Shown: positions 2,539-36,848, counted from the first letter of the stretch. The stretch: 64,000 nucleotides of DNA from Marsupella aquatica (GCA_973895155.1 OZ316899.1:14201934-14265933), one strand, 5' to 3'. Notes: generated by a model not told the origin, from the sequence alone. Numbers and translations: made by a program.

Positions 2539-2763
2539 GGGTACTTCTTCAACGGAGACAAATATATCGGTTTCTGGGAAGCATTGCTTCGGCTTCCGGA
2601 CAAGGTCTTCAATATCTCGGGTACGATCAACTTGCAATGACATCACTTCGACCACATCCCTACTCAGGTTCGGGCTATCATCAACAACAAGTCCACCACT
2701 ACCCATTCAACAAGGTCGTTCGCACTTGCTTCAGAGAACTTCTACCAGCACCTGCAGAGCTTC

Positions 2764-4890
2764 ATGGGAACTAGACCCGCAACCACCGGCGCCAACCCAG
2801 TGGACCCCATACCCGTACCCGTACCAATGCAGACTCAGGCTCAGGCTCAGCTTCAGGCTCAGCTTCAGTCTCAGCCTCAGCCTAGCCAACCCCCACCGCC
2901 GATCGCCCCGCCAGCAGTACAAGTACGCTCCATCATCAACGCTGTGGACCTTAGCGACGACGACGAGGCTACCCCACCCTTGCTCAGGCGGCTCAGAGGA
3001 GTAAACACTCAGGGGGCCGACACTACATCGTCCCCTCCCCATGCTCGGACCCAAGGAGCGGCTCCAGCAGACAACACGGTGACCGTGGCCGCCCCGGGAC
3101 CAATACTAACGGCGGTAGTACTACCTATGCCCGATCGAGAGGATGGGGAGGTGTCACCTTCCCCGAGCCAGTCACGGGGGAAGAAGAGGAAGGAACCCGC
3201 CACTGCATCCGGGTTACCATTGGCCACGGTAGCCGTGGCCAAGGTAACAATGCACCGCATGGGGGAAAACATGCATAAGAACATCCTCCATCCCAAGCAT
3301 GCGGTGTACCTGAAGACTCAGGGATTCGAGCACCTCGCCGCTCTGCCTTGGAACACTTGCAGGTACTACGGGGAGGACATGACAGAATTTGTCAAGAATT
3401 ATGATGATACACGTCAGCATACTCGGCTGCGGGGAAGGAATATGTCCCTCACGGAAGAACGCCTCAGGATGATCTTCGGATTACCCGAAGGTGACCATCG
3501 AGTCGAATCACGGGCTCCCGGGGGCAAGGGAGCCAAGTACCAATCCTCAAGTTTTCCCTCGGAAGGAGCAGTGGACAACTGGTTTGTGATGAGGACCTGC
3601 CTCATCCCCGAGATAGCTGAGCGACTGGAGTTCCAGAGGTACGCCCTCCACATGATGGAACCCTGGGGGGAGATCTCCGCCGCCCAGGTTATCCAGGTCG
3701 AGAACTATCGACCTAGGAAGTGGGCGTCGTACTTCGCTAAGAAATTCCATGAAGAGATGGAGCGGCGAAGGAAGACGCTGTACATTGGCGGGAAGGCGTA
3801 TTTCGCTAGCCACATCGAGATCATTCTTGAGTGGTATGCTCGGTTTGATCGACGAACCCTTCCCCGTGTCAACGTTACAAAGCTGGTCCCAGCTAGGTGG
3901 GTTTTTCCGGCCTTGGAGAGACGGCCCCAACCCGAGGCCCGAAGTCCAGCGGACACGCCAGCTTCACCCACCCCACCTCCACAAGTAGCTGTAGTCGTAA
4001 CCGAGGAGGTACCGGATGGGTCGGTTGTCGCAACCATTGATGCGATCCAACAGGCCGGGCTAAGTACAAAAGTCGGTACGACGGAGGTCTTACCCGAGCC
4101 CGGGTCTCCCAAAGACCCACCGGTGGCTATTCTGGAGAACCGAACATTGCTGCAGGAGGACACTCCAGCCCCTTCCAACATTACATCCCCAGGGCTGGAC
4201 GTCACTGCCCCGGCCCCCGCGCGTGTTGACGTCTGCCCGTGCCCAACTCCGGACAGGCACAACCTGGACCACCCGGAACTCTTCGTACCGGGTACATTTC
4301 TGAACGGGCTTCTGGGAGATTTCTCTCATCAAATTGCCCGGGATACCGGGGAGTTCATGGCCCGGAAGGTAGCATGTTTCTTCAATCAGGAGTTAGTTGC
4401 CGCAGTAAAGGCAGGTCGGTCCCAGTCAGAGGCCCTTCAGAGGATAGAGCGGTACCGGGTGGAGTCCGTCTACTTAAAGAATGAAGTTGCAGCTCAAGAG
4501 GCTGAGCTTCTGCAACTACGACCCAAGGTTGCAGCCGCCGATGATTTGTTAGCAAAGGCGCACGCCCTTACCGCCCTAGCCGAGCAGGCCAAAGCTGGGA
4601 ACGAGGCCGAGATTGCACGACTCCGGAACCAGATTGACAGTTTGAAGAATCAAACTGTCATCTGGCAGAAGGACCTGGAGGAGGCCGAAGAACGGGCCCA
4701 GCGGGACACTACGGAGATAGCCACGCTGCAGGCCGAGGTGGCGCGGCTCCAAACCGAGGCCGAGAAGCAGGACCAGCTGGCGGGTAAACTGACGAGCGAC
4801 GCCCAGCAGCTAGAGGAGGCATGTCAGGAGGCAGCAGAGGAGACGGATGCGGCGAGGCGAGAGAACGAATCTCTGCTGGACCAGGTCTAG
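2764..4890 (+). CDS. LTR-encoded accessory protein, longest open stretch (708 aa): Pro/Gln-rich region, Transposase_32/PMD-like domain, C-terminal coiled coil
   Basis: ORF lies wholly inside the LTR. The ancestral frame extends to TAG at 4977; the stop at 4888 is CAG>TAG relative to the solo LTR copy. Confidence 0.8.
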   Translation: MGTRPATTGANPVDPIPVPVPMQTQAQAQLQAQLQSQPQPSQPPPPIAPPAVQVRSIINAVDLSDDDEATPPLLRRLRGVNTQGADTTSSPPHARTQGAAPADNTVTVAAPGPILTAVVLPMPDREDGEVSPSPSQSRGKKRKEPATASGLPLATVAVAKVTMHRMGENMHKNILHPKHAVYLKTQGFEHLAALPWNTCRYYGEDMTEFVKNYDDTRQHTRLRGRNMSLTEERLRMIFGLPEGDHRVESRAPGGKGAKYQSSSFPSEGAVDNWFVMRTCLIPEIAERLEFQRYALHMMEPWGEISAAQVIQVENYRPRKWASYFAKKFHEEMERRRKTLYIGGKAYFASHIEIILEWYARFDRRTLPRVNVTKLVPARWVFPALERRPQPEARSPADTPASPTPPPQVAVVVTEEVPDGSVVATIDAIQQAGLSTKVGTTEVLPEPGSPKDPPVAILENRTLLQEDTPAPSNITSPGLDVTAPAPARVDVCPCPTPDRHNLDHPELFVPGTFLNGLLGDFSHQIARDTGEFMARKVACFFNQELVAAVKAGRSQSEALQRIERYRVESVYLKNEVAAQEAELLQLRPKVAAADDLLAKAHALTALAEQAKAGNEAEIARLRNQIDSLKNQTVIWQKDLEEAEERAQRDTTEIATLQAEVARLQTEAEKQDQLAGKLTSDAQQLEEACQEAAEETDAARRENESLLDQV

Positions 4891-5192
4891 CTCCTCAAGG
4901 CGGACAATGACAGGCTTCGAAGGCAGCGGGATGGCCGCTCCCATTCGGGCGGCTCTGGCAAGCGTGCCAGGCATTAGCAGCGGAGCAGGAATAGATTAGG
5001 ATTAGGACTAGCTTAGTCAGGCTCTTGGGACAGGCACCTGCCTTAGGTACAGCAGCGCTGCCATGCTGTCCAGCCTGCGTAGATTAGGATCTTCTAATAA
5101 GACACAGCCGTTTTCCGGCCTGACTGTCAGCTTAGTTAGGACCTTAGTCAGCGAATCTTCGGCGAGAGGACACCCCGTCCCTCGGCCCTTAG

Positions 5193-5199
5193 TATTTAG
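5193..5199 (+). promoter_or_regulatory. Putative TATA-like box for genomic RNA (TATTTAG); second copy at 15315-15321
   Basis: Followed by GCACCCCTCGGTAGAGGCAGGGGG; a very similar motif follows TATATAGAG in the different LTR at 45115-45078 (minus). Confidence 0.5.
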
Positions 5200-5884
5200 T
5201 GCACCCCTCGGTAGAGGCAGGGGGTTTTTTAGTCTCAGAGTTGGACATCCGTGGTATGTGCGGGGAGTCCCGGCCTCTGGGAGTGAAAGAGTACCAAGGG
5301 GAGGGGGTAGGACTAAGCTCACCGGGCGAGTGCGGAGCCGGGCTCCATTGTAGTATACTCTCTCGGCCTTGAACCTGTTCATTCCGGAGCTATCAGGTCA
5401 ACCAAGTGTACGCACATGTCCCCTATGTAGTAAAATCCTTTCCCATTATTTCCTTCGTGTAAATCGAGATTGTATGCTTGTGCGTGTGTATGTGTGTGTG
5501 AATCTCGTGTATAGGTGACAACGCCGGGCCGAACGCACTATCCGAATCATGCACGAGGTGCAGCTTGCGGGGATGTGGTTGCGAGCACAGGTTGAGGACC
5601 TGTATCATGGAATCCGGATCAAAGGCGGACAACACGAAGGCTTAGAAGTTCTTAAGCCGGGGTCGATCCTGTTATCGACTAAGGTACGTTCCGGCGGCGG
5701 AACACAAACCATACCTAGGAGATGTCTGTATCTAACAGTAGGCGCACTTAGCGCTAGTTTACGTGAATTAGGTGCATTACGCGCTTCCCTCCCTGCCCGA
5801 ACCCTCAGATTTACGAGGGATGTGCCCGTCTAAGCTGAAGTCTGAGTTAAGGCCGAAGCCGACGATGTGACATAGCCTTTGTTT

Positions 5885-5995: not shown

Positions 5996-8692
5996 ATGCC
6001 CGTCACTCGTTCTCAAGCAGCTTACTTGAGGAGATTGACCAGCGAACGAGAAAGTGCAACCATGACAAGTTCCGATTCTTCGGGCTCGGAGGACTCGCAC
6101 TCGCCCCGACGTATGAACATACCCCCGGGACCTTCAGGGTCCTGTTCGACCGCACCTGCTGCGGTTCCTCTGCCACCACCACCACCACCGCCACCTCCAC
6201 CACCACCTATGGCAGCCGCTCCACCGATGGCCCGCGCTGCTCAAGCTCCTCCACAAATATCGCAACGATCGCGATTTCATTATCGACCTTTCAAGGGGCG
6301 TCATGGGGATGATCCAGATGAATGGTTGGATGAGTTTGAAGCCACTGCTAAAGCTAATGGGGAAGACGCCATTAAGCTAACCGTCCTCCCGGGAGTGATG
6401 CGGGGAGAAGCTCGTCCATGGTACAACTCGTTGCCACCCGGGACTACATGGGCACAATTCCAAGCTGCATTGCTGCAGGAGTTTTGTGCCATTGGATCAG
6501 AACAGCGTTCTCTATTAAAGATTGGCCAGCTTCGCATGGGAAAGAAGGAGTCCCTGCGGAAGTTGATTCATAAGTTTCAGAAACTTGCGACCAAGATCTG
6601 GCCCAGGCCGGGAGACGCGCTCCAGCTTACATGGTTCCTTCATGGTTTGCCCACGAATATGCAATTCTGGGTACGCCAGAATAATCCAATTTCAATGCAG
6701 GCGGCCATAGCGTGCGCCGAAACTTACCGGGAGTCCACCTATAACTCCCGGCGGAGCCAGCGAGCACGCCGCAAGAAGGGTAAGTACGAGACCTTCAGTG
6801 ACAATGACTTTGAATCGGACGACGAGAGGAAGAAGAAAGGCAAGAAGAAGAAACATCGTTCGACCTCGTCCAGCTCGGAGACGGAATCCAGTTCGGATTC
6901 AGCTTCAAGCATCGGATCCTCTACCTCCAGTTCATCAGGAAGTGACTCGGAGAGCGAAAGCCGGAGCAAAAAGAAGAAGAGACGAGTGAAGAAGGAGGGG
7001 AAGATCAAACCCCGGGCGCGAAGAACGATACCAGATCCAAAGGCTGCCGAAGCAGACAAGCTGAACGAAATCACGGATCGACTCAAAGCACTGTCAGTAC
7101 ATCTTGCGGAAAAGCCGGTGGAGAAGAAGAAGCCATCTGAGATTCGAGCCCATGCGTGGTGTTCAAAGTGCTTCCAATCCGGCCATGTGGTGCAGGAATG
7201 CCCAAGGTGGAAGAACCGAGTTCACCAAGTAGAGCTGGATGATGTTGACAACCCGGGTCCCGAATCGGAGTCCACGGAGTATTTCTTTGAGGACCCTCCT
7301 GATTCCGTGTACCAGATTTCAACGGTAGGTCCGCGTAATTTAGCGGGTAGAACTGCGTACCCCTACCCAAACAATGGCCGGAGTTTCCAGGTTATCAGTA
7401 ACCCGAGCATCCCTCCTAAGCCAGGGATTTGGCGATCCCCGGTTTGTTATAACTGTGAAAAGCCAGGACACTTTGCGAGGGAATGCACCAAACCAAGACG
7501 CCAGGGGGATGGCCGTGGCACGCCACTTTGTCAAGTCTGCAAAACGGAAGCTCATTCCACGGCCAACTGTCCATTGGTCATGGCCGCTCGAACAAATGCA
7601 GCAAGACCAGCCCAGGGCGGACCGACCACGAGTGATGCGGTCATCCAAATGATTGCGGTGGAATGGCAGGATGACAATACCGAGTGGGTGAATCTGGTGG
7701 ACGTGGCGGAACACCCTAATCCATCTGACGAGGCTGAGTGCTATCGTGTGTCAACAAGAGCTGAACGGAAGGAAGAGAAGCAGGAGGAGAAACGCAGGAA
7801 AAAGCAAGATACTACTCCGATGCAGCCAGTGATAGATATACCCCCGGAGAAGGACGATGACTACCGACGGGACGACTCGAAGCTATTTTTCCCCCGCATC
7901 GAAGAATTGGTAAAGAAACAGTTGGAGGCCTACGAAGCTCGGGAATACCAGAAGGCAATCGATAAGGACATCAAAGCAACCGAGATAGCCCGGCGACAGG
8001 AGCAAGAAAAGCAAGATAAGCAAGAGGAAGCCAAGCAGCAGCCGAAGGAAGAAAAGAAGGAGGACTATGATATTAAGGAGGACGTGAAGAGTTGCCCGGT
8101 TACAGCAACGGTAGGACAACTACTGCAAAACAATCCACAGTACAGACGGCAACTGAGGGAGTTGCTTACGGGTCGACAACGGAGACGACTACCCCAAGTT
8201 GGGACCGCGGATTGCAACATGATATGCGAGGACCTGGGAGCGCCGGACATCTCGATTGAAATTAATAATTGTACCATCAGGATGGTTCTTGTAGACGGAG
8301 GAGCGGGAGTCAACATCATGACGGAAGAGACGTCAGTCAAGTTAGGATACCTCACGTATCAACCCACAGCCCGAGCTATCAGATTAGCAAACGGGGCAAG
8401 GGTACTTCCATTGGGCACGCTTACACGGGTACTCACTCTGGTAGGAGGGGTGGAGTTCTATCTCAACTTCCTAGTCATGAGGCCGGTTCGGCCCTCCTCT
8501 TATCTGATCCTCCTAGGCAGGCCGTGGCTGTACGGTGGCCGTGTGGTCACGGATTGGGGAAAGAAGGAGCTACGGTTTGGGACACCCACCGTATATGGGT
8601 ATCATGGGCAATGGACGATTATCAGGGAGAAACCCCACAAGGACCCGAGGAATATGATTTGGAGACCTTGGAGGAAGAGGAACTCAATATGA
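5996..8692 (+). CDS. gag: Gag (capsid, three CCHC knuckles) and aspartic protease
   Basis: PFKG..DPDEWLDEFE capsid start; CSKCFQSGHVVQEC, CYNCEKPGHFAREC, CQVCKTEAHSTANC; protease VLVDGGAGVNIM and ILLGRPWL; frameshift near 8590. Confidence 0.93.
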   Translation: MPVTRSQAAYLRRLTSERESATMTSSDSSGSEDSHSPRRMNIPPGPSGSCSTAPAAVPLPPPPPPPPPPPPMAAAPPMARAAQAPPQISQRSRFHYRPFKGRHGDDPDEWLDEFEATAKANGEDAIKLTVLPGVMRGEARPWYNSLPPGTTWAQFQAALLQEFCAIGSEQRSLLKIGQLRMGKKESLRKLIHKFQKLATKIWPRPGDALQLTWFLHGLPTNMQFWVRQNNPISMQAAIACAETYRESTYNSRRSQRARRKKGKYETFSDNDFESDDERKKKGKKKKHRSTSSSSETESSSDSASSIGSSTSSSSGSDSESESRSKKKKRRVKKEGKIKPRARRTIPDPKAAEADKLNEITDRLKALSVHLAEKPVEKKKPSEIRAHAWCSKCFQSGHVVQECPRWKNRVHQVELDDVDNPGPESESTEYFFEDPPDSVYQISTVGPRNLAGRTAYPYPNNGRSFQVISNPSIPPKPGIWRSPVCYNCEKPGHFARECTKPRRQGDGRGTPLCQVCKTEAHSTANCPLVMAARTNAARPAQGGPTTSDAVIQMIAVEWQDDNTEWVNLVDVAEHPNPSDEAECYRVSTRAERKEEKQEEKRRKKQDTTPMQPVIDIPPEKDDDYRRDDSKLFFPRIEELVKKQLEAYEAREYQKAIDKDIKATEIARRQEQEKQDKQEEAKQQPKEEKKEDYDIKEDVKSCPVTATVGQLLQNNPQYRRQLRELLTGRQRRRLPQVGTADCNMICEDLGAPDISIEINNCTIRMVLVDGGAGVNIMTEETSVKLGYLTYQPTARAIRLANGARVLPLGTLTRVLTLVGGVEFYLNFLVMRPVRPSSYLILLGRPWLYGGRVVTDWGKKELRFGTPTVYGYHGQWTIIREKPHKDPRNMIWRPWRKRNSI

Positions 8693-8997
8693 TTGAACTC
8701 ATCTCGTCCCTGTCCGAGGAAGATGTCTTCAGAGTTGAAGCAACCCGCGAAACACATCTCCTAAATTACCCGAGGGCTGCCATTGAGTCCACCCCAAGCA
8801 CATCTACTGCCGGGGATGAGGAAACGCACGAACAACTCGTCGAGACGGAGGACACGGCTCCAGCTAAGCAGGGAGCCGAGGCTGCTTCTACCGTTGCAGA
8901 GCCTCGTGACCACGAACCAGCCCAACAACCGCCCGAGGCCGAAAACTCGAGACCGAGACATAAGAAATGAGTCTCATGGGATCCGTCCATTCCACAA

Positions 8998-10104
8998 TTG
9001 GAGGAAGTAACTCCAATCCCGAGACCAATCCCGGTTCCACCCATGTACGGAGAAGTTCGGTTAGCTGAGCTTGATGCGAGCCTGGACCCGAGCCTGCGAA
9101 ACCAGGTTGAAGTCATCAGGAAGGAGCACTACCGGAAGTACACCATTGGGATGGACAAATCTTTTAACCTGGGCCACGCTCTGACAGGGGAGGCTGAAAA
9201 ATCCATCCAAGCTTTGCTCAAGGAATATAAAGATGTGTTTGCATGGAGCCATCATGATTTAACAGGAGTCTCCCCCGAGTTAGAAGAACACACGATCGAT
9301 TTGAATCTGGGGGCCCATGCAGTACGGCAGCGACAATGTCGCATGAACCCAAGGTACTCCATCTTAGTGAAGGAGGAAATTGATCGTCTCCTCGCCGCAG
9401 ATATCATCTACCCGGTAATGGCCAGCGACTGGGTCTCTCCCATCGTCATTGTACCGAAAAAAGGAGGAACGGACGGAAAACCTAAGATCCGGATTTGTCA
9501 GGACTATCGTAAGCTGAACGACGCAACCCAAAAAGACCATTACCCGTTACCATTCACGGATATGGTTCTAGATATGGTAGCCCGAAATGAAATTTATACA
9601 TTCCTTGACGGGTATTCGGGTTATAACCAAATCTGGATTCGCCTCTCGGATCAGCTCAAAACAACGTTCACTATGGAATGGGGGACTTTCGCATTTCGGA
9701 GAATGCCGTTCGGATTGTGTAACGCTCCGACCATGTTTCAACGACTCATGATGAATATCTTCCATGACTTCCTACGGGAATTTCTGGAGATATTTATCGA
9801 CGACTTCGCCATCTTTGGAACTGTCGCCATGCACCCCGAACACCTAAGATGTACGTTCCAACGATGCCGAGAGGTTAACCTCAAACTACATCCCGCTAAA
9901 TGTTTTTTCGGGGTAGAGGAGGGAGTATTACTCGGGCATCGTGTGTCCAAACGGGGTATCGAGGTGGACCAAGAGAAGGTCGCGGCCTGGATGGCGGTGG
10001 TGTTTCCCGTAGATCAAAAAGCGGTACGATCCTTCTTGGGCTGTGTAGGGTATTACCGTCGGTTTATTAAAGACTTTGCTAAAATAGCGCTGCCCCTTGA
10101 CTGA
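8998..10104 (+). pseudogene. pol: Pol reverse transcriptase segment (stop at 8968, frameshift near 10100)
   Basis: WVSPIVIVPKKGG, DYRKLNDATQKDHYPLP, FLDGYSGYNQI, MPFGLCNAP, FIDD. Confidence 0.95.
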
Positions 10105-12007
10105 GATGATGAAAAAGGACGCGGTGATCGAGGAGACACCCAGGAGACGGATTGCTTTCGAAGAACTCCGTAAAAGACTCACCACCGCACCTATCATGGT
10201 CACTCCAGACTGGAATAAGGAGTTCCACGTGTATGTCGATGTGTCAGGGTTCTGTATTGGATCCGTGCTCAGTCAGCTTGATGAGAACGGACGCGACCAC
10301 CCCATCTACTTCGCTAGCCGTCAATTATTCACAGCCAAAAAGAATTATTCCCCCACTAATCGAGAAGCTCTGGGAATAATCTACTCGTGTAAAAAGTTCC
10401 GATACTATCTGCTAGGCTACAAGGTCATATTCCACACGGATCATGATAGCCTGAAGTACATGGTCAACAAAGCGGACGTGACGGGATGGATAGCCCGGTG
10501 GGTGCTACTTCTCCAGGAATTTAACTACAAAGTTCGGGTTTGGCCCGAAAAGGCACACCTCAATGCCGACTTCTTTTCAAGGCTGGACGGCGTACCAGTC
10601 GATCAGCCAATTGATGATATTTTTCCGGATGAGGAGTTGTTCCACGTAGGGGCGGGGATGCCAACGTGGTACGGCTCAATTATCACCTTCCTCTTGACAG
10701 GCCGCATCCCTGACGGCATCAATCAGGAAGCCGCCGCTATGTTTCTACGGAAAGCCGGGCCTTACGTCATGGTACAGGGTCACCTACATAAGGAAGGAGT
10801 TAATGGGAAGTTACGACGCTGCTTGGAGTATAAGGAGACGCTTATCGTGATGCGGGCCTTGCATGAAGAAGAAGCTGGAGGTCATTTCGCAGCTATCACA
10901 ACAGCCCGAAAGATTCTGGACTCCGGATATTGGTGGCCTACGTTGCATCGGGATGTACAATGCTTCATCAAGGGCTGTGACCTGTGTCAGCGGGCTAGGG
11001 CCCCAAGACGAGCTCATCATCACCCTCTCACGTCCGTACTTCCATTAGCACCGTTCGAAAAGTGGGGTATTGATTATATCGGGCCATTTACTCCCGTTAC
11101 CCGAAGACGAAGATGCAGGTACATCCTGCTAGCTATTGATTACTCCACCAAGTGGGTCGAAGCACGGGCTACGGTGAAGGACGACGCCGCAACCAGCGCC
11201 AGGTTCTTATATGAACAAATTTTCACCCGGTTCGGCCCACCCTTAGAATTGGTAAGCGACCGTGGAACCCACTTCCTCAATGACACCGTAGCCCGGCTTA
11301 CGGAGCGTTACCTAGTCAAGCACCGCAAGACTACCCCGTATCATCCTAAGGCCAACGGGATGACAGAGAGAGCCAATGGTATCATTGGGAAAATCCTCAA
11401 CAAGACGGTAGCGGCGCACAAAATGGATTGGGATGATAAGTTGTATGCAGCGGTGTACTCGTATAATCTTGCTTACAAAACTACTACGAGTCACAGCCCG
11501 TACTTTCTCGTGTTCGGCCAACATTCGTTGGTACCCGTCAAGTTTGAAGTACACACTCCACGAGTCAGCATTCGGGATCGCTTACCTGAACCTGAAAGTT
11601 CGTCAGACCGAGCTTATCAGATTGAAGCCCTAGAAGAAGCACGGCTACTAGCAGCTCAACACGCCGTGAAGAAACAGGCAACTTCGAAGAAGCAGCACGA
11701 CAAAGGACTACGGAGGGTTGACGTCGTGGCAAGCGATCTAGTCCTTCTGTACGATAGTAGGTACATGCAGTTTCCAGGGAAGCTTCATACCCGGTGGTTA
11801 GGGCCCTTCCTTGTCAATCAGATCTACCGTAACGGATCTTTGGAGCTTGCGACATATGCCAGCGATTTACTCCCCACGCGAATCAGCTACGATCGTGTAA
11901 AAAAGTACCACCATCAAGATGACGACGCCGAGAGTGATGTTTGCGAGGACGCTTCACAATTAAGCAGGGAGCTATGTGACGCCGCTGGTACGGCGGTTAA
12001 TGAGTGA
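10097..12007 (+). pseudogene. pol: Pol RNase H and integrase segment; reads 33 nt into the 3' LTR
   Basis: VYVDVSGFCIGSVLSQ, NYSPTNREALG, TDHDSLKY; HHCC (H..GGH..C..C), GIDYIGP, SDRG, NGMTERAN, WLGPF. Confidence 0.95.
11962..11974 (+). promoter_or_regulatory. Short polypurine tract
   Basis: AAGCAGGGAGCTA directly before the LTR start TGTGAC at 11975. Confidence 0.55.
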
Positions 12008-12333
12008 TTCAGTCTAACTGCGCTCAGCACGCGCGTTAGGAGTGTCTTAGGCCGCTATTATTAGCATAACGACAGTATTTAGGTAATCATTATGGGTAGG
12101 ACATCATTAGGCAATAAGGGGGAATTCAGGTTCGGACTGGCGACGGATCGCTATTTGCACACCCGGGTTACGAGCGTGGAGGGGCCCCTCCCTCGGGTCC
12201 GTATAACGAACTTAAGGAAGCGGCCACTGACACGCGCTGACTCAGACCGGCGGAGTGGCCGGTACACCACAAGCGTGAGCGGTTCAGCCTATGGGCATCG
12301 AGGAGATGTCGGGGGATCGGCAAGCCCTCAAGG

Positions 12334-12340
12334 TATAAAA
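12334..12340 (+). promoter_or_regulatory. TATA box for the LTR-encoded ORF
   Basis: GGTATAAAAAGGG about 100 bp before ATG 12442; conserved in both minus-strand copies (near 20358 and 25373). Confidence 0.65.
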
Positions 12341-12441
12341 AGGGAGCCGACCCTTTGGAGTGCACCAGTCCATCAGTCCACGCGCCAGCTTCGACCCCAG
12401 CTCTCTCGTTCGCTCTAAGTCGCCACTACTATCTCCTCTGA

Positions 12442-15099
12442 ATGTCGCACACAATCCTCTCCAGCTCGGCCATTCGATTCTGGACGCAGTTCCTATCTAC
12501 CGAAAGGCACTTGGCCGACTCATTGAAACACGCCAACCCGCGCTGATACAAAATCAAACGCGAGTACGAGAGAGCCATCCGCCTAGCAGGACGACACCAC
12601 TACATCCTTAACTTTGACTACCTGTCTCAAAGCGAGCTTTACCGACCAGCAGAGGTATCTGGGTACTTCTTCAACGGAGACAAATATATCGGTTTCTGGG
12701 AAGCATTGCTTTGGCTTCCGGACGAGGTCTTCAATATCTTGGGTACGATCGACTTGCAATGACATCACTTCGACCACATCCCTGCTCAGGTTCGGGCTAT
12801 CATCAACAGCGAGTCCACCACTACCCGTTCGACAAGGTTGTCCGCACTTGCTTCGGAGAACTTCTACCAGCACCTGCAGAGCTTCATGGGAACTAGACCC
12901 GCAACCACCGGCGCCAGCCTAGTGGACCCCATACCCATACCCGTACCAACGCAGACTCAGGCTCAGGCTCAGCTTCAGGCCCAACTTCAGTCTCAGCCTC
13001 AGCCTAGCCAACCCCCACTGCCGATCGCCCCGCCAACAGTACAAGTACGCTCCGTCATCAACGCTGTGGACCTTAGCGACGATGACAAGGCTACCCCACC
13101 CTTGCTCAGGCGGCCCAGAGGAGTAAACACTCAGGGGGCCGACACTGCATCGTCCCCTCCCCATGCTCGGACCCAAGGAGCGGCTCCAGCAGACAACACG
13201 GTGATCGTGGCCACCCCGGGACCAATACTAACGGCGGTAGTACTACCTATGCCCGATCGAGAGGATGGGGAGGTGTCACCTTCCCCGAGCCAGTCACGGG
13301 GGAAGAAGAGGAAGGAACCCGCCACTGCATCCGGGTTACCATTGACCACGGTAGCCGTGGCCAAGGTAACAATGCACCGCATGGGGGAAAACGTGCATAA
13401 GAACATCCTCCATCCCAAGCATGCGGTGTACCTGAAGACTCAGGGATTCGAGCACCTCGCCGCTCTGCCCTGGAACACTTGCAGGTACTACGGGGAGGAC
13501 ATGACAGAATTTGTCAAGAATTATGATGATACACGTCAGCATACTCGGCTGCGGGGAAGGAATATGTCCCTCACGGAAGAACGCCTCAGGATGATCTTCG
13601 GATTACCCGAAGGTGACCATCGAGTCGAATCACGGGCTCCCGGGGGCAAGGGAGCCAAGTACCAATCCTCAAGTTTTCCCTCGGAAGGAACAGTGGACAA
13701 CTGGTTTGTGATGAGGACCTGCCTCATCCCCGAGATAGCTGAGCGACTGGAGTTCCAGAGGTACGCCCTCCACATGATGGAACCCCGGGGGGAGATCTCC
13801 GCCGCCCAGGTTATCCAGGTCGAGAACTATCGACCTAGGAAGTGGGCGTCGTACTTCGCTAAGAAATTCCATGAAGAGATGGAGCGGCGAAGGAAGACGC
13901 TGTACATTGGCGGGAAGGCGTATTTCGCTAGCCACATCGAGATCATTCTTGAGTGGTATGCTCGGTTTGATCGATGAACCCTTCCCCGTGTCAACGTTAC
14001 AAAGCTGGTCCCAGCTAGGTGGGTTTTTCCGGCCTTGGAGAGACGGCCCCAACCCGAGGCCCGAAGTCCAGCGGACACGCCAGCTTCACCCACCCCACCT
14101 CCACAAGTAGCTGTAGTCGTAACCGAGGAGGTACCGGATGGGTCGGTTGTCGCAACCATTGATGCGATCCAACAGGCCGGGCTAAGTACAAAAGTCGGTA
14201 CGACGGAGGTCTTACCCGAGCCCGGGTCTCCCAAAGACCCACCGGTGGCTATTCTGGAGAACCGAACATTGCTGTAGGAGGACACTCCAGCCCCTTCCAA
14301 CATTACGTCCCCAGGGCTGGACGTCACTGCCCCGGCCCCCCCGCGTGTTGACGTCTGCCCGTGCCCAACTCCGGACAGGCACAACCTGGACCACCCGGAA
14401 CTCTTTGTACCGGGTATATTTCTGAACGGGCTTCTGGGAGATTTCTCTCATCAAATTTCCCGGGATACCGGGGAGTTCATGGCCCGGAAGGTAGCATGTT
14501 TCTTCAATCAGGAGTTAGTTGCCGCAGTAAAGGCAGGTCGGGCCCAGTCAGAGGCCCTTTAGAGGATAGAGCGGTACCGGGTGGAGTCCGTCTACTTAAA
14601 GAATGAAGTTGCATCTCAAGAGGCTGAGCTTCTGCAACTACGACCCAAGGTTGCAGCCGCCGATGATTTGTTAGCAAAGGCGCACGCCCTTACCGCCCTA
14701 GCCGAGCAGGCCAAAGCTGGGAACGAGGCCGAGATTGCACGACTCCGGAACCAGATTGACAGTTTGAAGAATCAAACTGTCATCTGGCAGAAAGACCTGG
14801 ACGAGGCCGAAGAACGGGCCTAGCGGGACACTGCGGAGATAGCCACGCTGCAGGCCGAGGTGGCACGGCTCCAAACCAAGGCCGAGAAGCAGGACCAGCT
14901 GGCGGGTAAACTGACGAGCGACGCCCAGCAGCTGGAGGAGGCATGTCAGGAGGCAGCAGAGGAGACGGACGCGGCTAGGCGAGAGAACGAATCTCTACTG
15001 GACCAGGTCTAGCTCCTCAAGGCGGACAATGACAGGCTTCGAAGGCAGCGGGATGGCCGCTCCCATTCGGGCGGCTCTGGCAAGCGTGCCAGGCATTAG
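12442..15099 (+). pseudogene. Full-span LTR-encoded ORF (885 codons) with in-frame stops
   Basis: Single frame from MSHTIL to GKRARH*; stops at ~12544, 12760, 13975, 14275, 14560, 14821, 15010, all CGA>TGA or CAG>TAG. Confidence 0.85.
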
Positions 15100-15994
15100 C
15101 AGCGGAGCAGGAATAGATTAGGATTAGGACTAGCTTAGTCAGGCTCTTGGGATAGGCACCTGCCTTAGGTACAGCAGCGCTGCCATGCTGTCCAGCCTGC
15201 GTAGATTAGGATCTTCTAATAAGACACAGCCGTTTTCCGGCCTGACTGTCAGCTTAGTTAGGACCTTAGTCAGCAAATCTTCGGCGAGAGGACACCCCGT
15301 CCCTCGGCCCTTAGTATTTAGTGCACCCCTCGGTAGAGGCGAGGGGGTTTTTAGTCTCAGAGTTGGACATCCGTGGTATGTGCGGGGAGTCCCAGCCTCT
15401 GGGAGTGAAAGAGTACCAAGGGGAGGGGGTAGGACTAAGCTCACCGGGCGAGTGCGGAGCCGGGCTCTGTTGTAGTATACTCTCTCGGCCTTGAACCTGT
15501 TCATTCCGGAGCTATCGGGTCAACCAAGTATACGCACATGTCCCCTATGTAGTAAAATCCTTTCCCATTATTTCCTTCGTGTAAATCGAGATTGTATGCT
15601 TGTGCGCGTGTATGTGTGTGTGAATCTCGTGTATAGGTGACAACGCCGGGCCGAATGCACTACCCGAATCGTGCACGAGGTGCAGCTTGCGGGGATGTGG
15701 TTGCGAGCACGGGTTGAGGACCTGTATCATGGAATCCGGATCGACGGCGGACAACACGAAGGCTTAGAAGTCCTTAAGCCGGGGTCGATCCTGTTATTGA
15801 CTAAGGTACGTTCCGGCGGCGGAACACAAACCATACCTAGGAGATGTCTGTATCTAACAGTAGGCGCACTTAGCGCTACTTTACGTGAATTAGGTGCATT
15901 ACGCGCTTCCCTCCCTGCCCGAACCCTCAGATTTACGAGGGATGTGCCCGTCTAAGCTGAAGTCTGAGTTAAGGCCGAAGCCGACGACGTGACA

Positions 15995-16167
15995 TAGCCT
16001 TTGTTTTGGCGCTAGATGGAGGGGGCACTCTACATATCGTAGAGGGGAGACATGTGCGTATTCACCTAGGCAAGATACATCAGGACGTAGTACTAACCAT
16101 CGCATTTATATGAGTAAATGCCCATCACTCGTTCTCAAGCAGCTTACTTGAGGAGATTGACGTGACA
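15995..16167 (+). mobile_element. Second PBS, leader and gag start, fused to the last bases of an LTR
   Basis: 15995-16161 repeats 5873-6039 (PBS at 16007-16024), then GTGACA. Confidence 0.85.
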
Positions 16168-16874
16168 GGGGGTGCCATTGGTTCTCGTGGTTTGCGGGTG
16201 TTAGCTCGCCCGCTTGCCAAATCCTGCCAAACAGCAGCCGAGCCGCATTCAACCTCCCAAGGGAGCTTGCGTTGGGGAGGCAAGGCCAAGTAGGTATGGA
16301 GGCTGAGTCCCAAGGGCACTCGGTCCCTAGACCATCAGTGGGGCAAACCGGGAGCAGTTGTTAGAGTCGGGGCCGTTCTGGTCCCGGCGTGTTGAGACAA
16401 ACTTGGGACAAGCTTTAGGACAAGCTACGCTATTTGGGCCATGAGCATGTCCTAAGGTCAGGGCGGTCAGTTGGTGATGGATAGGTACGAGGGGAACCCG
16501 GGCCGCGCCCAAGGAAGGAGCTGTCCTGGACAGACAGTGGGCGTGGGTTCTGGTTCCGGCTTATGGCATCGGGAGGACCTATCGCTGACCTATTTACCAA
16601 CGTCTGTTGAGCTTGAGTTAGGATGCTAGACTGGGAAAGTCCTAGATCCGGAGGGGTTACTTACCAAGATGCTTGGTTGTTTGTGCAGACAATGAGGACC
16701 GTTGAGTAGCGGTCGTGTAGGTGAGCAAGTGCGGCTTCGTATGGGAGTGGCCGCAGGAGGTGCTAGAGGCACTTGGATGCTTGCTCGAGGTATTCCGTGG
16801 AGGCGTTCGGGCACCAAGGGCACTTAGTCGCAAGTGCTGGGATTGGTGAGGGCGCTGGGTGGCAAGGTCCACCA
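16168..16874 (-). mobile_element. Fragment of the 1.16-kb LTR family X, inserted in LTR A3 and interrupted by the family A element
   Basis: Reverse complement of 33169-33875; TGGTGGACC terminus at 16874. Confidence 0.85.
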
Positions 16875-19800
16875 TTGGGAGGCACGGAATGCACCTAACT
16901 CACATAAACTAGCGCTAAGTGCGCCTATTGTCATATACGGACACCTCTTAGGTATGGTTTGTGTTCCGCCGCCGGAACGTACCTCAGTCAATAGCAGGAT
17001 CAACCCCGGCTTATGGGCTTCTAAGCCTTTGTGTTGTCCGCCTTTGATCCGGATTTGATGGTATGGGTACTCAACCCGGGCTCGCAACCACTTACCCCGC
17101 AAGCTGCACCCCGTGCACGACTTGGGTAGTGCGTTCGGCCAAGCGTTGGCACCTATACACGAGATTCACACATATACATACGCACAAGCATACAATCTCA
17201 ATTTACACGAAGGAAATAATGGGAAAGGATTTTACTAGATAAGAGACATAAGCGTACACTTAGTTGACCCAAAAGCTCTAGAATGAACAGGTCCGAGGCC
17301 AAGGGTGTACACTACAACGGAGCCCGGCTCCGCACTTGCCCAGCAAGCTTAGTCCTACACCCTCCCCTTGGTACTCTTTCACTCCCAGAGGTCGGGACTC
17401 CCCGCACATACCACGGATGTCCAACACTGAGACTAAAAATCCCCCTGCCTCTACCAAGGGGTGCACTAAATACTAAGGGCCGAGGAACAGAGTGCCCTCA
17501 CGCCCGAAGATTTGCTAACTAAGATCCTAACTAAGGTGGCTGTCAGGCCGGAAAACGGCTTGTCTTATTAGAAGATCCTAATGTACGCAGGTTGTACAGC
17601 ATGGCAGTGCTACTTTAACTAGGGCAGGTGCTTGTCCCTATAGCCTAATTTAACTACTCCTACTCTATTTTAATCATACTCTGCCGCTAATGTCTAGCAC
17701 GCTTGCCAGAGCCGCCTGAGTGGGAGCGGCTATCCCGCTGCCTTCTGAGCCTGTCGGCGTCCTGCTTGAGTAGCTGGACCTGGTCCAGCAGAGATTTGTT
17801 CTCCCGCTTTGCCGCATCTGCCTCTTTCGCGGCCTCCTGGCATGCCTCCTCCAATTGTTGGGTGTCGTTCGTCAGCTTATCCACCAACTAGGCCTGTTTC
17901 GTGACTTCTCCTTGAAGCCGCGCCACCTCTGCCTTCAGGGTGTCAATCTGGGCTGTGTCCCACTAAGACCTGGAGTCAGCTTCCTCCAGATCCTTTTGCC
18001 AACTGACAGCTTGCCCCTTCAAACCATCAATCTTGGTCCGGAGCCGCGCGATCTCGACGTCCTTTCCGAGCCCGGCCTGTATTGCTAATGCTGCTTGGGC
18101 CCTAGCCTCGACAATCTGGTCCTCCGTGGCCGTTACCTGAGGCCGTAGTTGGTGGAGTTCAGCCTCCAGGGTTGCCACTTTGTCCTTCAAGTAGGCAGAC
18201 TCAACCCGATATCGCTCTATTCTCTGCGTTGTCTCTGCCTGTGCATGTCCTGCCCTTACTACCGCAACCAACTCCTGGTTGAAGAAGTAGGCCACCCTCC
18301 GGGCCATGTATTCCCCGGTGTCCCAAGAGATCTGTTGAAAGAAATCTCCCAACAACCCGTTCAAAAATGTGCCCGACACAAAGAGTTCCGGATGGTCTAG
18401 ACTGTGACCTTCTGGATTCGGGCACAAGCAGACTCCAACCCGTGCGGGTGTAGGAGTGGACACATCCAGCCCTTGAGGTAAGTTGGTCAAAGGGGCTGGT
18501 TCCACTGGAGGTGGGCGGTTTTCCTGCACCACCGCGGGGGGTGGCGGAATCCCCTTGGCTACCGTGGCATCTGCTTTGGGTACAGCTTCATCCGGCCCGA
18601 CTTTGATTGCATTATCCCGATTGATCGCGTGTAAGGTCGCGATAACGTCAATGGGTATGCCTGGCGGGGTGGCAGAGGCTGGTTGCGGTAGCAGGACTTG
18701 CAGCCGCCAGACTTTGGTCCTCGGGCTGCGGTCGCCTCACCTGGGCTGGGAACACCCATTTTGGCGGGGTCAGCTCGGGCTCGTTGAGATGCGGGAGGCT
18801 CTGGCGGTCGAAACGAGCATACAGCTCGATGATGATTTTGATGTGGCTAGCGAAGTACGCCCTTCCGCCAATGTACAAAGTCTTCCTTCTCCGCTCCATC
18901 TCCTCGTGGAACTTCTTGACGAAGAAGGACGCCCACTTCCTGGGCCGATATTTCTCCTCTGGGTTCCATCATGTGGAGGGCATACTGCTGGAACTCCAGG
19001 CGTTCTGCTACCTCCGGGATGAGGCACGTCCTCATTAAGAACCCATTGTCCACTACCCCCTCGGCCGTGAAGCTAGATGACTGGTATTTAGCTCCCTTGT
19101 CCCCAAGAGCCCGCGATTCTACCCAGTTTATCCCCTCGGGTAAGCCCAAAATCATCTTCAGACGTGCCTCATTGAGAAAAATCACTCTCCCATGCGCTCT
19201 GGTTTGTTGACGGGCCTTGTCGAAGTTCTAAATGAACTCCGTCATATCCTGCCCGTAGTACCTACTTCCATTCCAAGGGAGAGAGGCAAGGTGCTCAAAC
19301 CCTTGGGTCTTCATATAGCATGTATGCTTGGGGTGGAGGATGTTCTTGTGAACGTTGTCCCCCATGCGATGCATGGTCAGCTTGGCTACCGCAACCGTGG
19401 CCAAAGGCAACCCGGATACGGCTGCGGGCTCCTTCATCTTCCTACCCCAAGACTGATTCCCGGGGTGACTAGAAGAGGGGGGCATCTCTCCATCCTCTCG
19501 GTCAGGTGGTGGTAGCGCGACTGCCGTGAGTATTGGTGCCGAGGCCGCTAGAGTTACTATGTTATCCCCTCGGGCTTGCTGGAGTGGTGCTGGGTTGTTC
19601 AGCGCTTGTTGAGTCGTACCCCGTGGCCGTCAATTCAGAGGAGGGTGAGCCTCCTCATCTTCGGAACTAATATTTACTGCATTCACCACGGATCGTACTC
19701 GGAGAGGCGGTGGGACCAGTGGTGGGGACCGGCTCGGCTGAGGCCGAGGAGGTGTAGGCGCGGGTACGGGCACGAGTTGGCCGGCGCTGGTCGTTGATGG

Positions 19801-20748
19801 TAGAGTTGCCATGAAGTTCTGCAGGTGCCGGTGGAGGTTCTCCGAAGCAAGTGAAGACGGCCTGGTTGACCGGGCAGTGTTGAACTCGCTATTGATGATA
19901 GCCCGGACCCAAGTGGGGATGTGGTCAAAGTGGTGCCGATGCAAGTCAATCGTGCCCGGGATATTGAAGACCTCGTCCAAAAGCCAAAGCAATGCCTCCC
20001 AGAAGCCGATGTATTTGCCTCTGTCGAAGAAGTACCCTGATACTTCTTCGGGTCGGTAAAGCTTGCTTTGGGACGGGTAATCAAAGTTAAGGAGATAGTG
20101 GAGTCGTCCTGCTAGGCAGATGGCTCTCTTGTATTTGCGTTCGATCTTGTATTGGCGCGGGTTGGCGTGTTTCAATGAGTCGGCCAAGTGCCCTCCGATA
20201 GACAGGAACCGAGTCCAGAATTGTATGGCCGAACTGGAAAGATCGTGTGCAACATTCAGAGGAGATAGCAGGTGACTAAGGAAAAGCGAGAGAGCCGGGG
20301 TTGAAGCTGGCGCGTGGACTAAAGAACTGGTGCACTGCAAAGGATCAACCCCCTTTTATACCCTGAGAGCTTGTCAACCGCCCGACGCCTCCTCGTCGCT
20401 TATAGGCCGAGCCTTTCACGCTCGCAGTGTACCAGCCCCTTTGCCGGTCCAGGTCAGCTTGTGTCAATGGCCGCCTCCCGGAGTTTGTTATACGGACCCG
20501 AGGGAGGGGGAAAGGGGGCCCATTACACGCTCGCAACCCGGGCGTGCAAATGGCAACCAGGGCGTGCAAATGGCAACCCGCCGCCAGCCCGAACATGAAT
20601 TCCCCTTATTGACTAATGATTTCCTACTCATAATAGCTACCTAAATACTGTCGTTATGCTAATAATAACGGCCTGAGATACCCCTAATGCGCGTGCTAAG
20701 CGCAGTTAGACAAAATCACTCATTACCCGCCGTACCGGCGGTGTCACA
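16875..20748 (-). mobile_element. Older diverged family A LTR (A3) with decayed ORF (17687-20255)
   Basis: Colinear with 11975-15910; starts TGTGACACCG at 20748; no pol or PPT adjoining; ORF fragments e.g. HKNILHPKH, HPELFVSGTFLNGLLGDF. Confidence 0.92.
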
Positions 20749-21701
20749 CCAGATCTTTCCCCACACAAACGTCCATCTGAATGCTCCTTGTCATCAGACG
20801 ACCCGATCTCCACATGCTTGCACACATCTCCCTCCGTGATGCTCTGGCCCCGCATCTCTGCTTCACTAGCACTCTGCCTACTGCGCGTCTCACTTTCGTT
20901 TGCACTCCTGGGTTTTTGAAGTAGATCCCTCATGGAATACCCACTGTGAAGGAGCAATCGCGTTACAGCCGTGCCACAGTAACAGGGATAACGTTTCATT
21001 CTTGGAAGCTTATCATCTGACAAATGCTTCCTCAACGCCACTATCTCACCCTTCAAGCAGTCCCAGACAAAATGAGCCCAGTCTGGCTTCAAAGTTGGAC
21101 ATTCAACATCTTGGGCCCGAACCTCTCCCGGGATTGTACTCCACCAGGAAGCCCAATACACCCACATGTCCTTTCTGGTTACTTGGGTGGGCTTTGTTTT
21201 CCCAAGAAGTAGCTTGTTTACAACCTTCACAGGCTCCTGCCAAAGCTTGAACACATCCGATAGGGTATCCAAATTCCAAGGGTTTGTGTGGTTCTGAGGC
21301 ACAATAAACATGGCATCCAGTTGGTCGGACACCCATGAATTTCAAAAATGTCCAAATTGCCCATTGGGCAGATGGAATGCAGCTTGCACTATTTCTTTGT
21401 CAAATTTCAGCAATGCACCCCGGAACATGCAACTGTCAGTGTCTAGGTCAAATGCTTGGACAAATTCGGTAACTCCAACAATCGCCACCCGTGGCCATTC
21501 CAACTGAAATGCCTCGACCAGATTTCCTGCCACCAACAAATTGTGCGTTCCAGGCTCACATTGCAGGCTGGAACGTATTTTCCTTGGAGTCATCGATTTC
21601 CATATGGTGCGGGTGACCCCTGCAAAAAGATTCCCCGTTCCTTCAAATACAGCTCCAATCCAATGTACATAACTCATAAAGTACAAACACAGGCGGCTTA
21701 C
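20749..21701 (-). pseudogene. Degenerate gene with the same Transposase_32/PMD-like domain; upstream exon probably at 25742-25900
   Basis: LEWP..VTEFVQAFDLDTDSCMFRGALLKFDKEIVQAAFHLPNG and KPDWAHFVWDCLKGEI..CYCGTAVTRLL; removing the solo LTR restores a phase-consistent GTGAGT...GAAG intron. Confidence 0.6.
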
Positions 21702-24700: not shown

Positions 24701-25732
24701 GTTTGGCTAGGCTGAGGCTGAAGCTGAAGCTGAGGTTGAGGCTGAAGCTGAGGTTGCATGGGCACGGGTACGGGTACGGGCCCGGCTGAGTTGGTCATGT
24801 TGGTTGATGGCCGAGTTCCCATGAAGCTCTGCAGGTGCTGGTAGAAGTTCTCCGAAGCGAGTGCGGACGCCCTTGTCGAACGGTTGGTACTGGACTCGCC
24901 GTTAATGACAGCCCGAACCTGGGCAGGGATGTGGTCGAAGTGATGTCGCTGCAGGTCGATTGTACCGGGGATATTGAAGACCTCGTCCGGAAGCCGAAGC
25001 AATGCTTCCCAGAACCCGATATATTTGTCTCCGTTGAAGAAGTACCCAGATACCTCAGCTGGTCGGTAAAGCTCGCTCTGAGATGGGTAGTCAAAGTTAA
25101 GGACGTAGTGGTGTCGTCCTGCTAGGTGGATGGCTCTCTCGTATTCGCGTTCGATCTCGTATCGGCGCGGGTTGGCGTGTTTCAATGAATCGGCCAAGTG
25201 CCTTCCGGTAGATAGGAACTGCGTCCATAATCGAATGGCCGAGCTGGAGAGGATCGTGTGTGACATTCAGAGGAGATAGTAGTGGCGACCTAGAGAGAAC
25301 GAGAGAGCTGGGGTCGAAGCTGGCGCGCGGACTGATGGACTGGTGCACTACAAAGGGTTGGCTCCCCTTTTATACTTTGAGGGCTTGTCGATCCCCGACG
25401 TCTCCTCGACGCCCATAGGTTGAACCGCTCACGCTTGTGGTGTACCGGCCACTTCGCCGGTCTGAGTCAGCGTGCGTCAGTGGCCGCTTCCTTAAGTTCG
25501 TTATACGGACCCGAGGGAGGGGCCCCTCCACGCTCGTAACCCGGGTGTGCGAATAGCGACCCGCCGCCAGCCCGAACCTGAAGTCCCCCTTATTGCCTAA
25601 TGATGTCCTACCCCTAATGATTACCTAAATACTGTCGTTATGCTAATAATAGCGGCCTAAGACCCACCTAACGCGCGTGCCGAGCGCAGTTAGACTGAAT
25701 CACTCATTAACCGCCGTACCGGCGGTGTCACA
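21702..25732 (-). mobile_element. Family A solo LTR (4031 bp) with 5-bp TSD CTTAC
   Basis: CTTAC at 21697-21701 and 25733-25737 flanks TG...CA ends; no internal region. Confidence 0.97.
22618..25266 (-). pseudogene. LTR-encoded ORF in the solo LTR, nearly intact
   Basis: In-frame pieces of 508, 170 and 172 aa, separated by stops at 23740 and 23170. Confidence 0.85.
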
Positions 25733-36245: not shown

Positions 36246-36848
36246 GTGAAGCAAATGGTCTACTTTGATTCGGCTTTCAAGGCAAACACAACATCAAATT
36301 TGTCCGAAGGTTTGAAGTGGGAGATGTCAATTCGAGAAGCGTTGTTGATGCTGGCAAGTGGATTTGTGAAAGTGTTGGTGCAGTTGCTCCGTGCACTGTT
36401 TGTTGGTTGCAGTAAGTTTGCGCAATGGATCCGGGAGCAAGGTGCCAAGCTGAAGGAGAATAGACCAAAAAAGGTAGAGATCCGGGGAGAGGAGGTTGCT
36501 GCTGAGGTGGGGTCACCACAATTGTTGCATCCGGTGATGTCATCGATGAGCGATGTACTGCAACTGTCATCGAAGAGCGATGTAGTGCAGCGGCCAAGTG
36601 CCCTTCAAGCAAACATGGAAGCGCTGATGAAGCAATGGCGATTTGGCAAAGCAATGGAGGAGCCTGGAATGTCCCATCGTCAATTTTATGCAGTTGCAGT
36701 GGGAAGAAGGCCAGGAATTTACATGACTCCGACAGAGGCGAACAATGAAGTGAGCGGATATCCAGGGAATTGCCATCAGAGTTTTCGGACGTTGGCAGAG
36801 GCAGAGTTCTTCCTGATGAGGAAAGGTGTAATGCTTAAGGAGGACTGA
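36246..36848 (+). CDS. Protein ending in an RNase H1 N-terminal hybrid-binding (Cauli_VI-type) domain
   Basis: FYAVAVGRRPGIYMTPTEANNEVSGYPGNCHQSFRTLAEAEFFL; no RNase H catalytic domain follows. Confidence 0.75.
   Translation: MKQMVYFDSAFKANTTSNLSEGLKWEMSIREALLMLASGFVKVLVQLLRALFVGCSKFAQWIREQGAKLKENRPKKVEIRGEEVAAEVGSPQLLHPVMSSMSDVLQLSSKSDVVQRPSALQANMEALMKQWRFGKAMEEPGMSHRQFYAVAVGRRPGIYMTPTEANNEVSGYPGNCHQSFRTLAEAEFFLMRKGVMLKED

Follow-up and report, generated by a model that had tools for sequence, protein, structure and literature searches.

The window analysed here is a 64,000-nucleotide stretch of the Marsupella aquatica genome (GCA_973895155.1 OZ316899.1:14201934-14265933), and all positions are counted from its first letter. 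It contains a Ty3/gypsy retrotransposon whose 4,020-bp long terminal repeat (LTR) carries an accessory gene of 885 codons. The element, the four copies of its LTR and the associated replication signals are arranged as follows.

11975-15994, plus strand: LTR of 4,020 bp (TG...CA), which starts with TGTGAC and ends with GTGACA
2539-5872, plus strand: 5´ LTR, 97.8% identical (BLAST), first 686 bp cut off by element B
2641-4890, plus strand: open stretch of 749 codons in the 5´ LTR
5996-12007, plus strand: gag (zinc knuckle), protease, reverse transcriptase (RT), RNase H and integrase, between the two plus-strand LTR copies
11962-11974, plus strand: polypurine-tract-like sequence inside the end of pol
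16007-16025, plus strand: sequence like a primer-binding site (PBS), TGGCGCTAG..., 12 nt behind the LTR and identical behind the 5´ LTR
21702-25732, minus strand: solo LTR, 90.9% identical over its full length (BLAST), with the target-site duplication (TSD) CTTAC
16877-20748, minus strand: diverged copy A3, 70-80% identical (BLAST), 3´ end cut by another element

The copy at 21702-25732 (minus strand) is a solo LTR that fixes both LTR ends, because CTTAC flanks it on both sides; a reading made earlier from the sequence alone (the sequence-only reading) had placed the boundaries in the same way. The element shows the TG...CA ends, a direct repeat around gag-pol, a PBS behind the repeat, a polypurine tract before it and the TSD of the solo copy that are expected of a Ty3/gypsy LTR, and its pol domains follow the Ty3/gypsy order of protease-RT-RNase H-integrase. 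The distance of 12 nt between the PBS and the LTR end is larger than usual. The pol frame crosses the purine tract, enters the LTR by 33 nt and stops at 12007, which leaves no space for an internal 3´ open reading frame (ORF); the internal region is almost entirely gag-pol.

The segment behind the LTR (15995-16167) holds the same PBS and 167 bp of internal sequence that are found behind the 5´ LTR. A GAC microhomology joins these 167 bp to the final 9 nt of an LTR, which are followed by GGGGG and then a foreign element. The LTR at 11975-15994 is the 3´ LTR of the first unit plus the 5´ LTR of a largely deleted second unit. Because the PBS, the 167 bp of internal sequence and then the 9-nt LTR-end match trail it, we infer a former tandem in which it was the middle LTR and from which a deletion removed the second unit. 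A comparison of 12661-13260 with 2539-3138 shows 27 differences in 600 positions between the two LTRs of the insertion, against ~1-3% further on, so one of them may be chimeric or converted. The elements are nested in one another: element B interrupts the 5´ LTR, removing the TATA box and the first ~73 codons of the accessory gene with the missing 686 bp; another TG-ended element interrupts A3; and both A3 and the solo LTR lie in another stretch of coding sequence.

The gene inside the LTR and the segments of its predicted protein lie at the following positions.

12442-15099, plus strand: accessory gene of 885 codons, ATG...TAG, with 7 internal stops in this copy
12334-12339, plus strand: sole TATAAA of the LTR, at 360 nt from its start and 108 nt ahead of the ATG
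12442-12831, plus strand: N-terminal domain of ~130 residues, common to the homologues P0126/P0200, P0207, P0208, P0160 and P0149
13297-13314, plus strand: basic patch RGKKRK in a proline-rich linker, a possible nuclear localisation signal found by eye
13354-14007, plus strand: core domain of ~218 aa, modelled from the stop-free 5´-LTR copy (3232-3903)
14362-15096, plus strand: conserved segment of ~60 residues, then a coiled-coil-like region of ~170 residues, with the end GKRARH

The frame occupies 66% of the LTR, in agreement with the sequence-only reading, which had described two thirds of the LTR as one sense frame with a TATA box, recognisable in all four copies. It contains 7 internal stops, compared with 22-39 in the other five frames. 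The TATAAA at 12334 is retained in the solo copy and A3; three copies extend to the ATG and share it, and all four share the terminal TAG. The gene is broken in every window copy: the copy at 12442-15099 has its 7 stops, the solo copy (25266-22618, minus strand) stays in frame all along with 2 stops, the truncated 5´ LTR has 2 stops, and A3 (20255-17687, minus strand) has 4 stops and 3 frameshifts. The breaks are mostly at differing positions, and the stops of the three closer copies always fall where another copy has CAG or CGA, a pattern that is compatible with methylation-driven decay following insertion.

The ratio of nonsynonymous to synonymous substitution rates (dN/dS; Nei-Gojobori method with 95% bootstrap ranges) is 0.19 (0.16-0.24) for the gene against A3 and 0.29 (0.22-0.38) against the solo copy, and the core domain alone gives 0.07 (0.03-0.12) against A3. 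Between the two LTRs of one insertion the ratio is 0.81 (0.44-1.68), as expected for a gene that decays after insertion. Four of the five control frames give 0.88-1.66 in the solo and A3 comparisons; the fifth, an antisense frame with shared third positions, gives 0.31-0.35, which is also expected. The sequence-only reading had named a ratio near 1 between subfamilies with no intact copy, or a nested insertion absent from most LTRs, as grounds for abandoning its interpretation; the ratio is far below 1, and the gene segment is present in all four window copies. These substitution patterns indicate that the gene evolved under past purifying selection.

Contigs from all four sequencing runs that were compared with the gene (four organisms) cover every one of its bins. 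In run X1 the sense letter makes up 99% of the summed depth at two stop positions; contig depth at the gene does not measure copy number. One contig of run X1 skips 13338-15342 (2,005 nt of the gene region), which means that LTRs without most of the gene exist. Together with the breakage of all four copies, this contig speaks for a passenger, that is, a nested insertion or a captured host gene in neutral decay in some LTRs. Such a passenger is contradicted by dN/dS values of 0.17-0.29 between subfamilies and by indels, which are divisible by 3 in 11 of 14 cases in the frame and in 0 of 17 in the flanks (the A3 junction excepted). Neither an internal TSD nor internal termini were seen, the coverage extends to all four runs, and the same layout recurs in L001 and L007, two related elements that are described below. 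The passenger reading is already largely refuted, and we regard it as highly improbable. That the gene is real and resident in the LTR is close to certain; its retention in the solo copy at 21702-25732 supports the proposed architecture, in which an accessory gene inside the LTR is copied with each LTR and kept in solo LTRs.

The predicted protein consists of the N-terminal domain, the proline-rich linker, the core, a second linker, the 60-aa segment, the coiled-coil-like region and a basic C-terminus. The coiled coil that had been noticed from the sequence is recovered as a coiled-coil-like region toward the C-terminus. A profile of the four window cores, compared with 1.84 billion proteins, identified 76 homologues at E<=0.001; among 20 that were looked up by organism, seven belong to Calypogeia fissa and two to Riccia sorocarpa, and the Riccia homologues are annotated beside a DDE transposase (DDE_Tnp_4) fragment. 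One homologue, P0200, is intact and full-length: it has 906 aa, is stop-free and aligns at the N-terminus, the core and the C-terminus. An Atlas search with the N-terminal domain gave no usable match. Word-index protein searches, whose low sensitivity is illustrated by their missing P0200, returned nothing for the 749-aa frame or for the domain alignment among proteins of 750-2140 aa, and a metagenome scan with the domain matched 142 stretches, of which none was confirmed.

Athila 3´ ORFs were once proposed to encode env-like membrane or movement proteins. In favour of such a protein here are the sense orientation downstream of pol, as in env-like ORFs (PMC7264820), and a sunflower Athila ORF that joins Transposase_32 similarity to a transmembrane helix (PMC11728184). 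No transmembrane-like stretch was seen in a Kyte-Doolittle hydropathy scan, in which the highest 19-residue value is 1.1-1.6 in three sequences. The basic patches, a fold match to a DNA-binding protein and the lack of any match to viral models at E<=0.001 also argue against an env-like protein, which is very unlikely.

The sequence-only reading had called the domain PMD/Transposase_32-like. The core has no match in Pfam at E<=10, whether to PMD (PF10536), Transposase_32 (PF20167) or DUF1985 (PF09331). None of the 76 homologues matches PMD at E<=0.01; four of them match Transposase_32 at this threshold (best 30.3 bits, E 4.6e-7), below the curated cut-off of 45 bits, and 6 of 57 do so at E<=1. 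The homologues do not reach membership of DUF1985 in Pfam. In Atlas, a 14% PMD row scored 0.82 and an 82% DUF1985 row scored 0.83, which are treated as leads only. By family score, the LTR protein is not a member of VANC, PMD or Transposase_32. The label therefore fails as Pfam membership and survives as a guess at kinship, through the weak Transposase_32 matches of the homologues and the fold match described next.

The core was modelled with AlphaFold2 from a 57-row alignment with a predicted local distance difference test score (pLDDT) of 91.5 and a predicted template modelling score of 0.87; a 4-sequence alignment gave an unusable model (pLDDT 39). In a Foldseek search of the PDB the VANC21-DNA complex (9LNJ) ranks first with a probability of 0.93 (TMq 0.53, E 0.048), and the next entry has a probability of 0.02. 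VIA-align against 48,161 solved chains gives VANC21 a Z of 8.0-8.1 with an rmsd (root-mean-square deviation) of 4.1-4.2 over 204-205 aligned residues, followed by a next Z of 2.6. The core model matches residues 294-558 of VANC21; the Z is middling, yet the match is alone and spans the whole domain. Residues W40, F53, R94, N116, C123, R131, F134, W164 and H194 of the core (numbered as in the model) are conserved. PDB sequence searches returned coiled-coil or chance rows only, and a viral fold library gave no match at E<=0.001. On this predicted model, the core very probably has a VANC/DUF1985/PMD-type fold.

The closest named RT relatives are Calypogeia fissa proteins with 64-70% identity. In an RT tree of 33 rows, whose root is untested, the element clusters with two Calypogeia rows (99/99), within a larger clade that also holds Marchantia, Riccia, L001 and L007 (100/99) and is separate from the seed-plant rows. 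Neither a chromodomain match nor the additional archaeal-type RNase H that defines Tat/Ogre/Retand was found in the pol frame, and the additional RNase H can be absent in the liverwort Tat Z clades (Z2 included) and in Phygy. From its pol sequence, the element is a non-chromovirus Ty3/gypsy element, likely of Athila-like or basal Tat-like type, and its relatives point to a liverwort host.

L001 and L007 come from an RT scan of metagenome contigs that kept 79 loci, the best of 291 confirmed. Their RTs are 67% and 65% identical to that of the element, and they share its pre-LTR sequence (TTyGCGrGGAC...purines, then TG). The TG start of L001 is an inverted copy of the 5´-LTR end before the PBS, the 5´-LTR tail is not reached over the next 1,370 nt, and an ORF begins 515 nt inside this apparent LTR; L007 has a TATA box and a related ORF start ~500 nt inside its own. 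The ORF of L001/L007 matches the core profile with a probability of 79% (reversed control 0.05%). In the more distant L004, L002 and L008 (RT 50-51%), a homologue (80%) follows pol by ~430 nt, and no LTR start was found before it in these contigs, which end early. In an AT-rich clade, 10 of the 13 two-LTR loci, about 7 distinct elements, have a ~600-bp 3´ LTR with a homologue in decay (89%, control 0.06%) 1.4-2.2 kb upstream of it; the other three (L045, L059 and L077) have no homologue at E<=1e-4. Single-sequence hidden Markov model matches did not exceed the reversed control in L001 and L049-L051 and were dropped in favour of the profile comparisons.

Seed-plant Athila keeps a Transposase_32-like ORF beside gag-pol (PMC11728184). 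Because distant relatives hold a homologue, and seed-plant Athila such an ORF, beside gag-pol, parsimony favours a move into the LTR, and the gene likely left an internal 3´ position in this lineage. Originally it may have been an extra ORF on the 3´ side of pol, located ahead of the 3´ LTR and driven by a promoter of its own. A shift of plus-strand priming upstream to the end of pol would then have taken it into the LTR, where it would be copied twice per replication round. Under this route the gene would be part of U3, and genomic RNA would start from a second promoter downstream; alternatively, genomic RNA could start at the TATA box at +360, which would place the gene in R as the first cistron.

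VANC21 binds a 9-nt motif that is arrayed in one orientation in the non-coding parts of its own element, and removes methylation (PMC5735166). VANC proteins have a coiled coil, and their DUF1985 domain reportedly resembles the PMD of MAIN/MAIL1 (PMC13547354; 10.1101/2024.09.27.615353), which oppose Polycomb silencing at promoter motifs (10.1101/2024.09.27.615353). Oligomers of VANC and of the Athila domain have been modelled via coiled coils (PMC13547354). The anti-silencing idea of the sequence-only reading is now better founded than that reading could show, because the fold matches VANC21, whose DUF1985 reportedly resembles the MAIN/MAIL1 PMD. By this structural analogy, the chances are about even that the LTR gene encodes a self-recognising anti-silencer of its own family. 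It would be transcribed from the TATA box at +360, solo LTRs included; the protein would enter the nucleus, oligomerise via its coiled coil, bind arrayed short motifs in the family LTRs and oppose DNA-methylation or Polycomb silencing.

Two clusters of the 4-mer TTAG are candidates for such motifs.

12036-12110, plus strand: leader cluster of 5 same-strand TTAG
15118-15354, plus strand: candidate binding array of 11 same-strand TTAG just behind the gene, all within 261 nt after the stop

TTAG is the top 4-mer of the non-coding LTR, with 19 occurrences on the plus strand in 1,362 nt against 7.0 in shuffles (z 4.6, compared with 3.5 for the 95th percentile of the best 4-mer in shuffles) and 7 on the minus strand; TTAGG occurs 10 times against 2.0 expected. 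Only 1 of 76 TTAG-site letters differs from the solo copy, compared with 70 of 718 letter-matched positions outside the sites, and a further copy comparison gives 5 of 75 against 101 of 714. The clusters are a weak candidate target and serve as a lead only. TCCGGA was considered as a family-specific motif in L001 and L007 and rejected, being abundant along the whole elements; its excess there is element-wide, at 7-18 per kb with a peak in the LTR leader.

Several points weigh against a self-recognising anti-silencer. The motif has only four letters, was picked on this copy and ranks fourth of 42 frequent 4-mers in conservation; it is also present in the leaders of element B and L001, and 2-7 times in unrelated AT-rich 600-bp LTRs. 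It resembles the telomere repeat, and it can originate by deamination of TCAG. With 10% identity, an rmsd of 4.1-4.2 and a Foldseek E above 0.001, the fold match is middling, and it was obtained with a predicted model onto which the DNA-contact residues of VANC21 could not be mapped. A common fold does not demonstrate function: the host genes MAIN/MAIL use the same fold, and their loss releases transposons (PMC5418596). Transcription of the gene is predicted only, and none of the four window copies is intact. The L001 and L007 contigs end before their LTR ends, the profile matches that link L001, L004 and L022 have probabilities of only 79-89%, and the direction of the move into the LTR is parsimony on an RT tree without a tested root.

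An LTR-binding protein might instead serve replication, by tethering the cDNA or integration complex to chromatin (site choice, nuclear entry) or by scaffolding particles via its coiled coil. The four LTR copies and two other domain carriers are nested within 26 kb, as a targeting protein might produce, but nesting is common in heterochromatin without targeting. The integrase lacks a chromodomain match, and such roles have been proposed for plant extra ORFs (PMC7264820). However, the sole structural neighbour, VANC21, is an anti-silencer, and the Riccia homologues beside a DDE transposase fragment suggest use across several transposon classes; a replication role is therefore unlikely. The presence of gene, promoter and motif clusters within one unit would also suit a protein that simply activates transcription from the LTR promoter in trans, or represses it by feedback, without directly affecting silencing marks. 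Host proteins of this fold stimulate the expression of certain genes, and when they are lost transposons are released. The two branches of the fold that have been characterised both act on silencing marks, however, and a repressor, which would limit copy number, is a poorer fit to a family that appears abundant in several runs; we assign a low probability to this alternative.

If the protein is an anti-silencer, solo LTRs might be active as helpers, a suggestion that we consider doubtful. We put forward the wider proposal with similar reserve, as one that may well be wrong: a bryophyte Ty3/gypsy LTR would pack promoter, VANC-fold gene and target motifs, its solo LTRs would unsilence the family, and the VANC/PMD fold would be an early land-plant retrotransposon tool that predates angiosperm MAIN/MAIL and dicot VANC.

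The window holds two further carriers of the core domain. Element B, which is inserted in the 5´ LTR, occupies the following position.

522-2538, continuing to position 1, minus strand: element B, with its TG terminus at 2538

Its first ATG lies 115 nt inside and opens a frame of 651 codons with a paralogous core (28% identity, E 3e-16); a coiled-coil-like tail lies beyond stops. Contigs of all four runs cover element B throughout, and flanks at its end do not appear among the contig matches listed. Element B is probably a second family with an LTR-resident gene. A third, distant carrier, family D (20749-21701 and 25733-~26030, minus strand; profile probability 95.6%), is split in two by the solo LTR, and A3 cuts it. 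Its resemblance, judged by eye, to the Riccia homologues that carry the annotation of a DDE_Tnp_4 fragment suggests that it may be part of a DNA transposon.

The remaining features of the window are of other kinds. Two 707-bp copies of another TG-starting element end (16168-16874 and 33169-33875; 94.8% identical, opposite strands) are present, and contigs continue beyond 16874 with variable flanks. A coding family without a Pfam match has copies at 28294-28932 (plus strand) and 58544-59581 (minus strand) with ~50% amino-acid identity, followed by coiled-coil-like frames (29260-29901, 30034-31173 and 57932-58405). A decayed CACTA transposase (Transposase_21, DUF4218) lies at 47553-50775 (minus strand), and a frame with an RNase H1 N-terminal (Cauli_VI) domain at 36246-36848 (plus strand). 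Among the metagenome loci, L013 (5900-7375), L014 and L012 encode a polyprotein with an apparent second aspartic-protease-like segment behind the integrase, as judged by eye.

Recombination between LTRs to a solo LTR is the usual way in which plants disarm retrotransposons; here, what remains after it is a complete transcription unit that encodes a likely chromatin-acting protein. Such genes would escape annotation that seeks extra ORFs only beside gag-pol or takes solo LTRs to be non-coding. In plants, sequence-specific anti-silencers have been characterised in DNA transposons (VANC), and the LTR gene is a testable candidate in an LTR retrotransposon, in a lineage that includes the tractable model Marchantia. 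Several bryophyte transposon families seem to carry the fold. This bears on whether the PMD/VANC fold passed from hosts to transposons or in the reverse direction, for which two scenarios are given in PMC5418596 and capture from MAIN is proposed in PMC13547354.

The LTR protein shares with VANC21 and VANC6 of the VANDAL (Mutator-like) transposons (PDB 9LNJ/9LNK) its predicted core fold, a coiled coil, a conserved domain between variable low-complexity regions, and short same-strand motifs clustered in the non-coding parts of the element. It differs in that it is encoded beside gag-pol in a retrotransposon rather than in a DNA transposon, with 10% identity, and in a bryophyte-type host, whereas VANC is described as dicot-specific (PMC13547354). 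Here the frame is intronless and inside the terminal repeat, the motifs are not in tandem repeats, and binding and demethylation are suggested by analogy.

The extra ORFs of Athila, Tat and Ogre elements include a PMD (PF10536) in Ogre, Athila ORF1/Transposase_32, Grande gene23 and Retrosat2 ORF0 (PMC6317226, PMC7264820, PMC3485330, PMC11728184). Like them, the LTR gene is a family-wide accessory gene of a non-chromovirus Ty3/gypsy element, in sense orientation after pol and with a weak link to Transposase_32. Unlike them, it lies in the LTR and is present twice per element and in solo LTRs; those ORFs are internal, either before gag or between pol and the 3´ LTR. Reviews confirm the background statement of the sequence-only reading that plant extra ORFs normally lie between the LTRs (PMC7264820; PMC6317226). 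Retrosat2 has LTRs of 3.2 kb, and its ORF0 is described upstream of gag-pol (PMC3485330). We found no plant element with a gene inside its LTR in phrase searches limited to open-access text.

The host proteins MAIN, MAIL1 and MAIL2 (PMC5418596; 10.1101/2024.09.27.615353) belong, via VANC, to the same fold superfamily and counter Polycomb silencing at promoter motifs. PMDs carried by gypsy elements are known from angiosperms (PMC5418596). In contrast to MAIN/MAIL, which are angiosperm host genes, the LTR gene is mobile and has no PF10536 match.

LTR-resident genes are known from retroviruses, for example sag of mouse mammary tumour virus, and are located in or overlapping U3. Like sag, the gene described here is a protein gene within the LTR that is duplicated at each replication. 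The sag product is a membrane superantigen of ~320 aa, encoded in the ~1.3-kb LTR of an infectious virus; the gene in this LTR has no homology to sag, belongs to a plant retrotransposon and encodes a protein of 885 aa that is likely nuclear.

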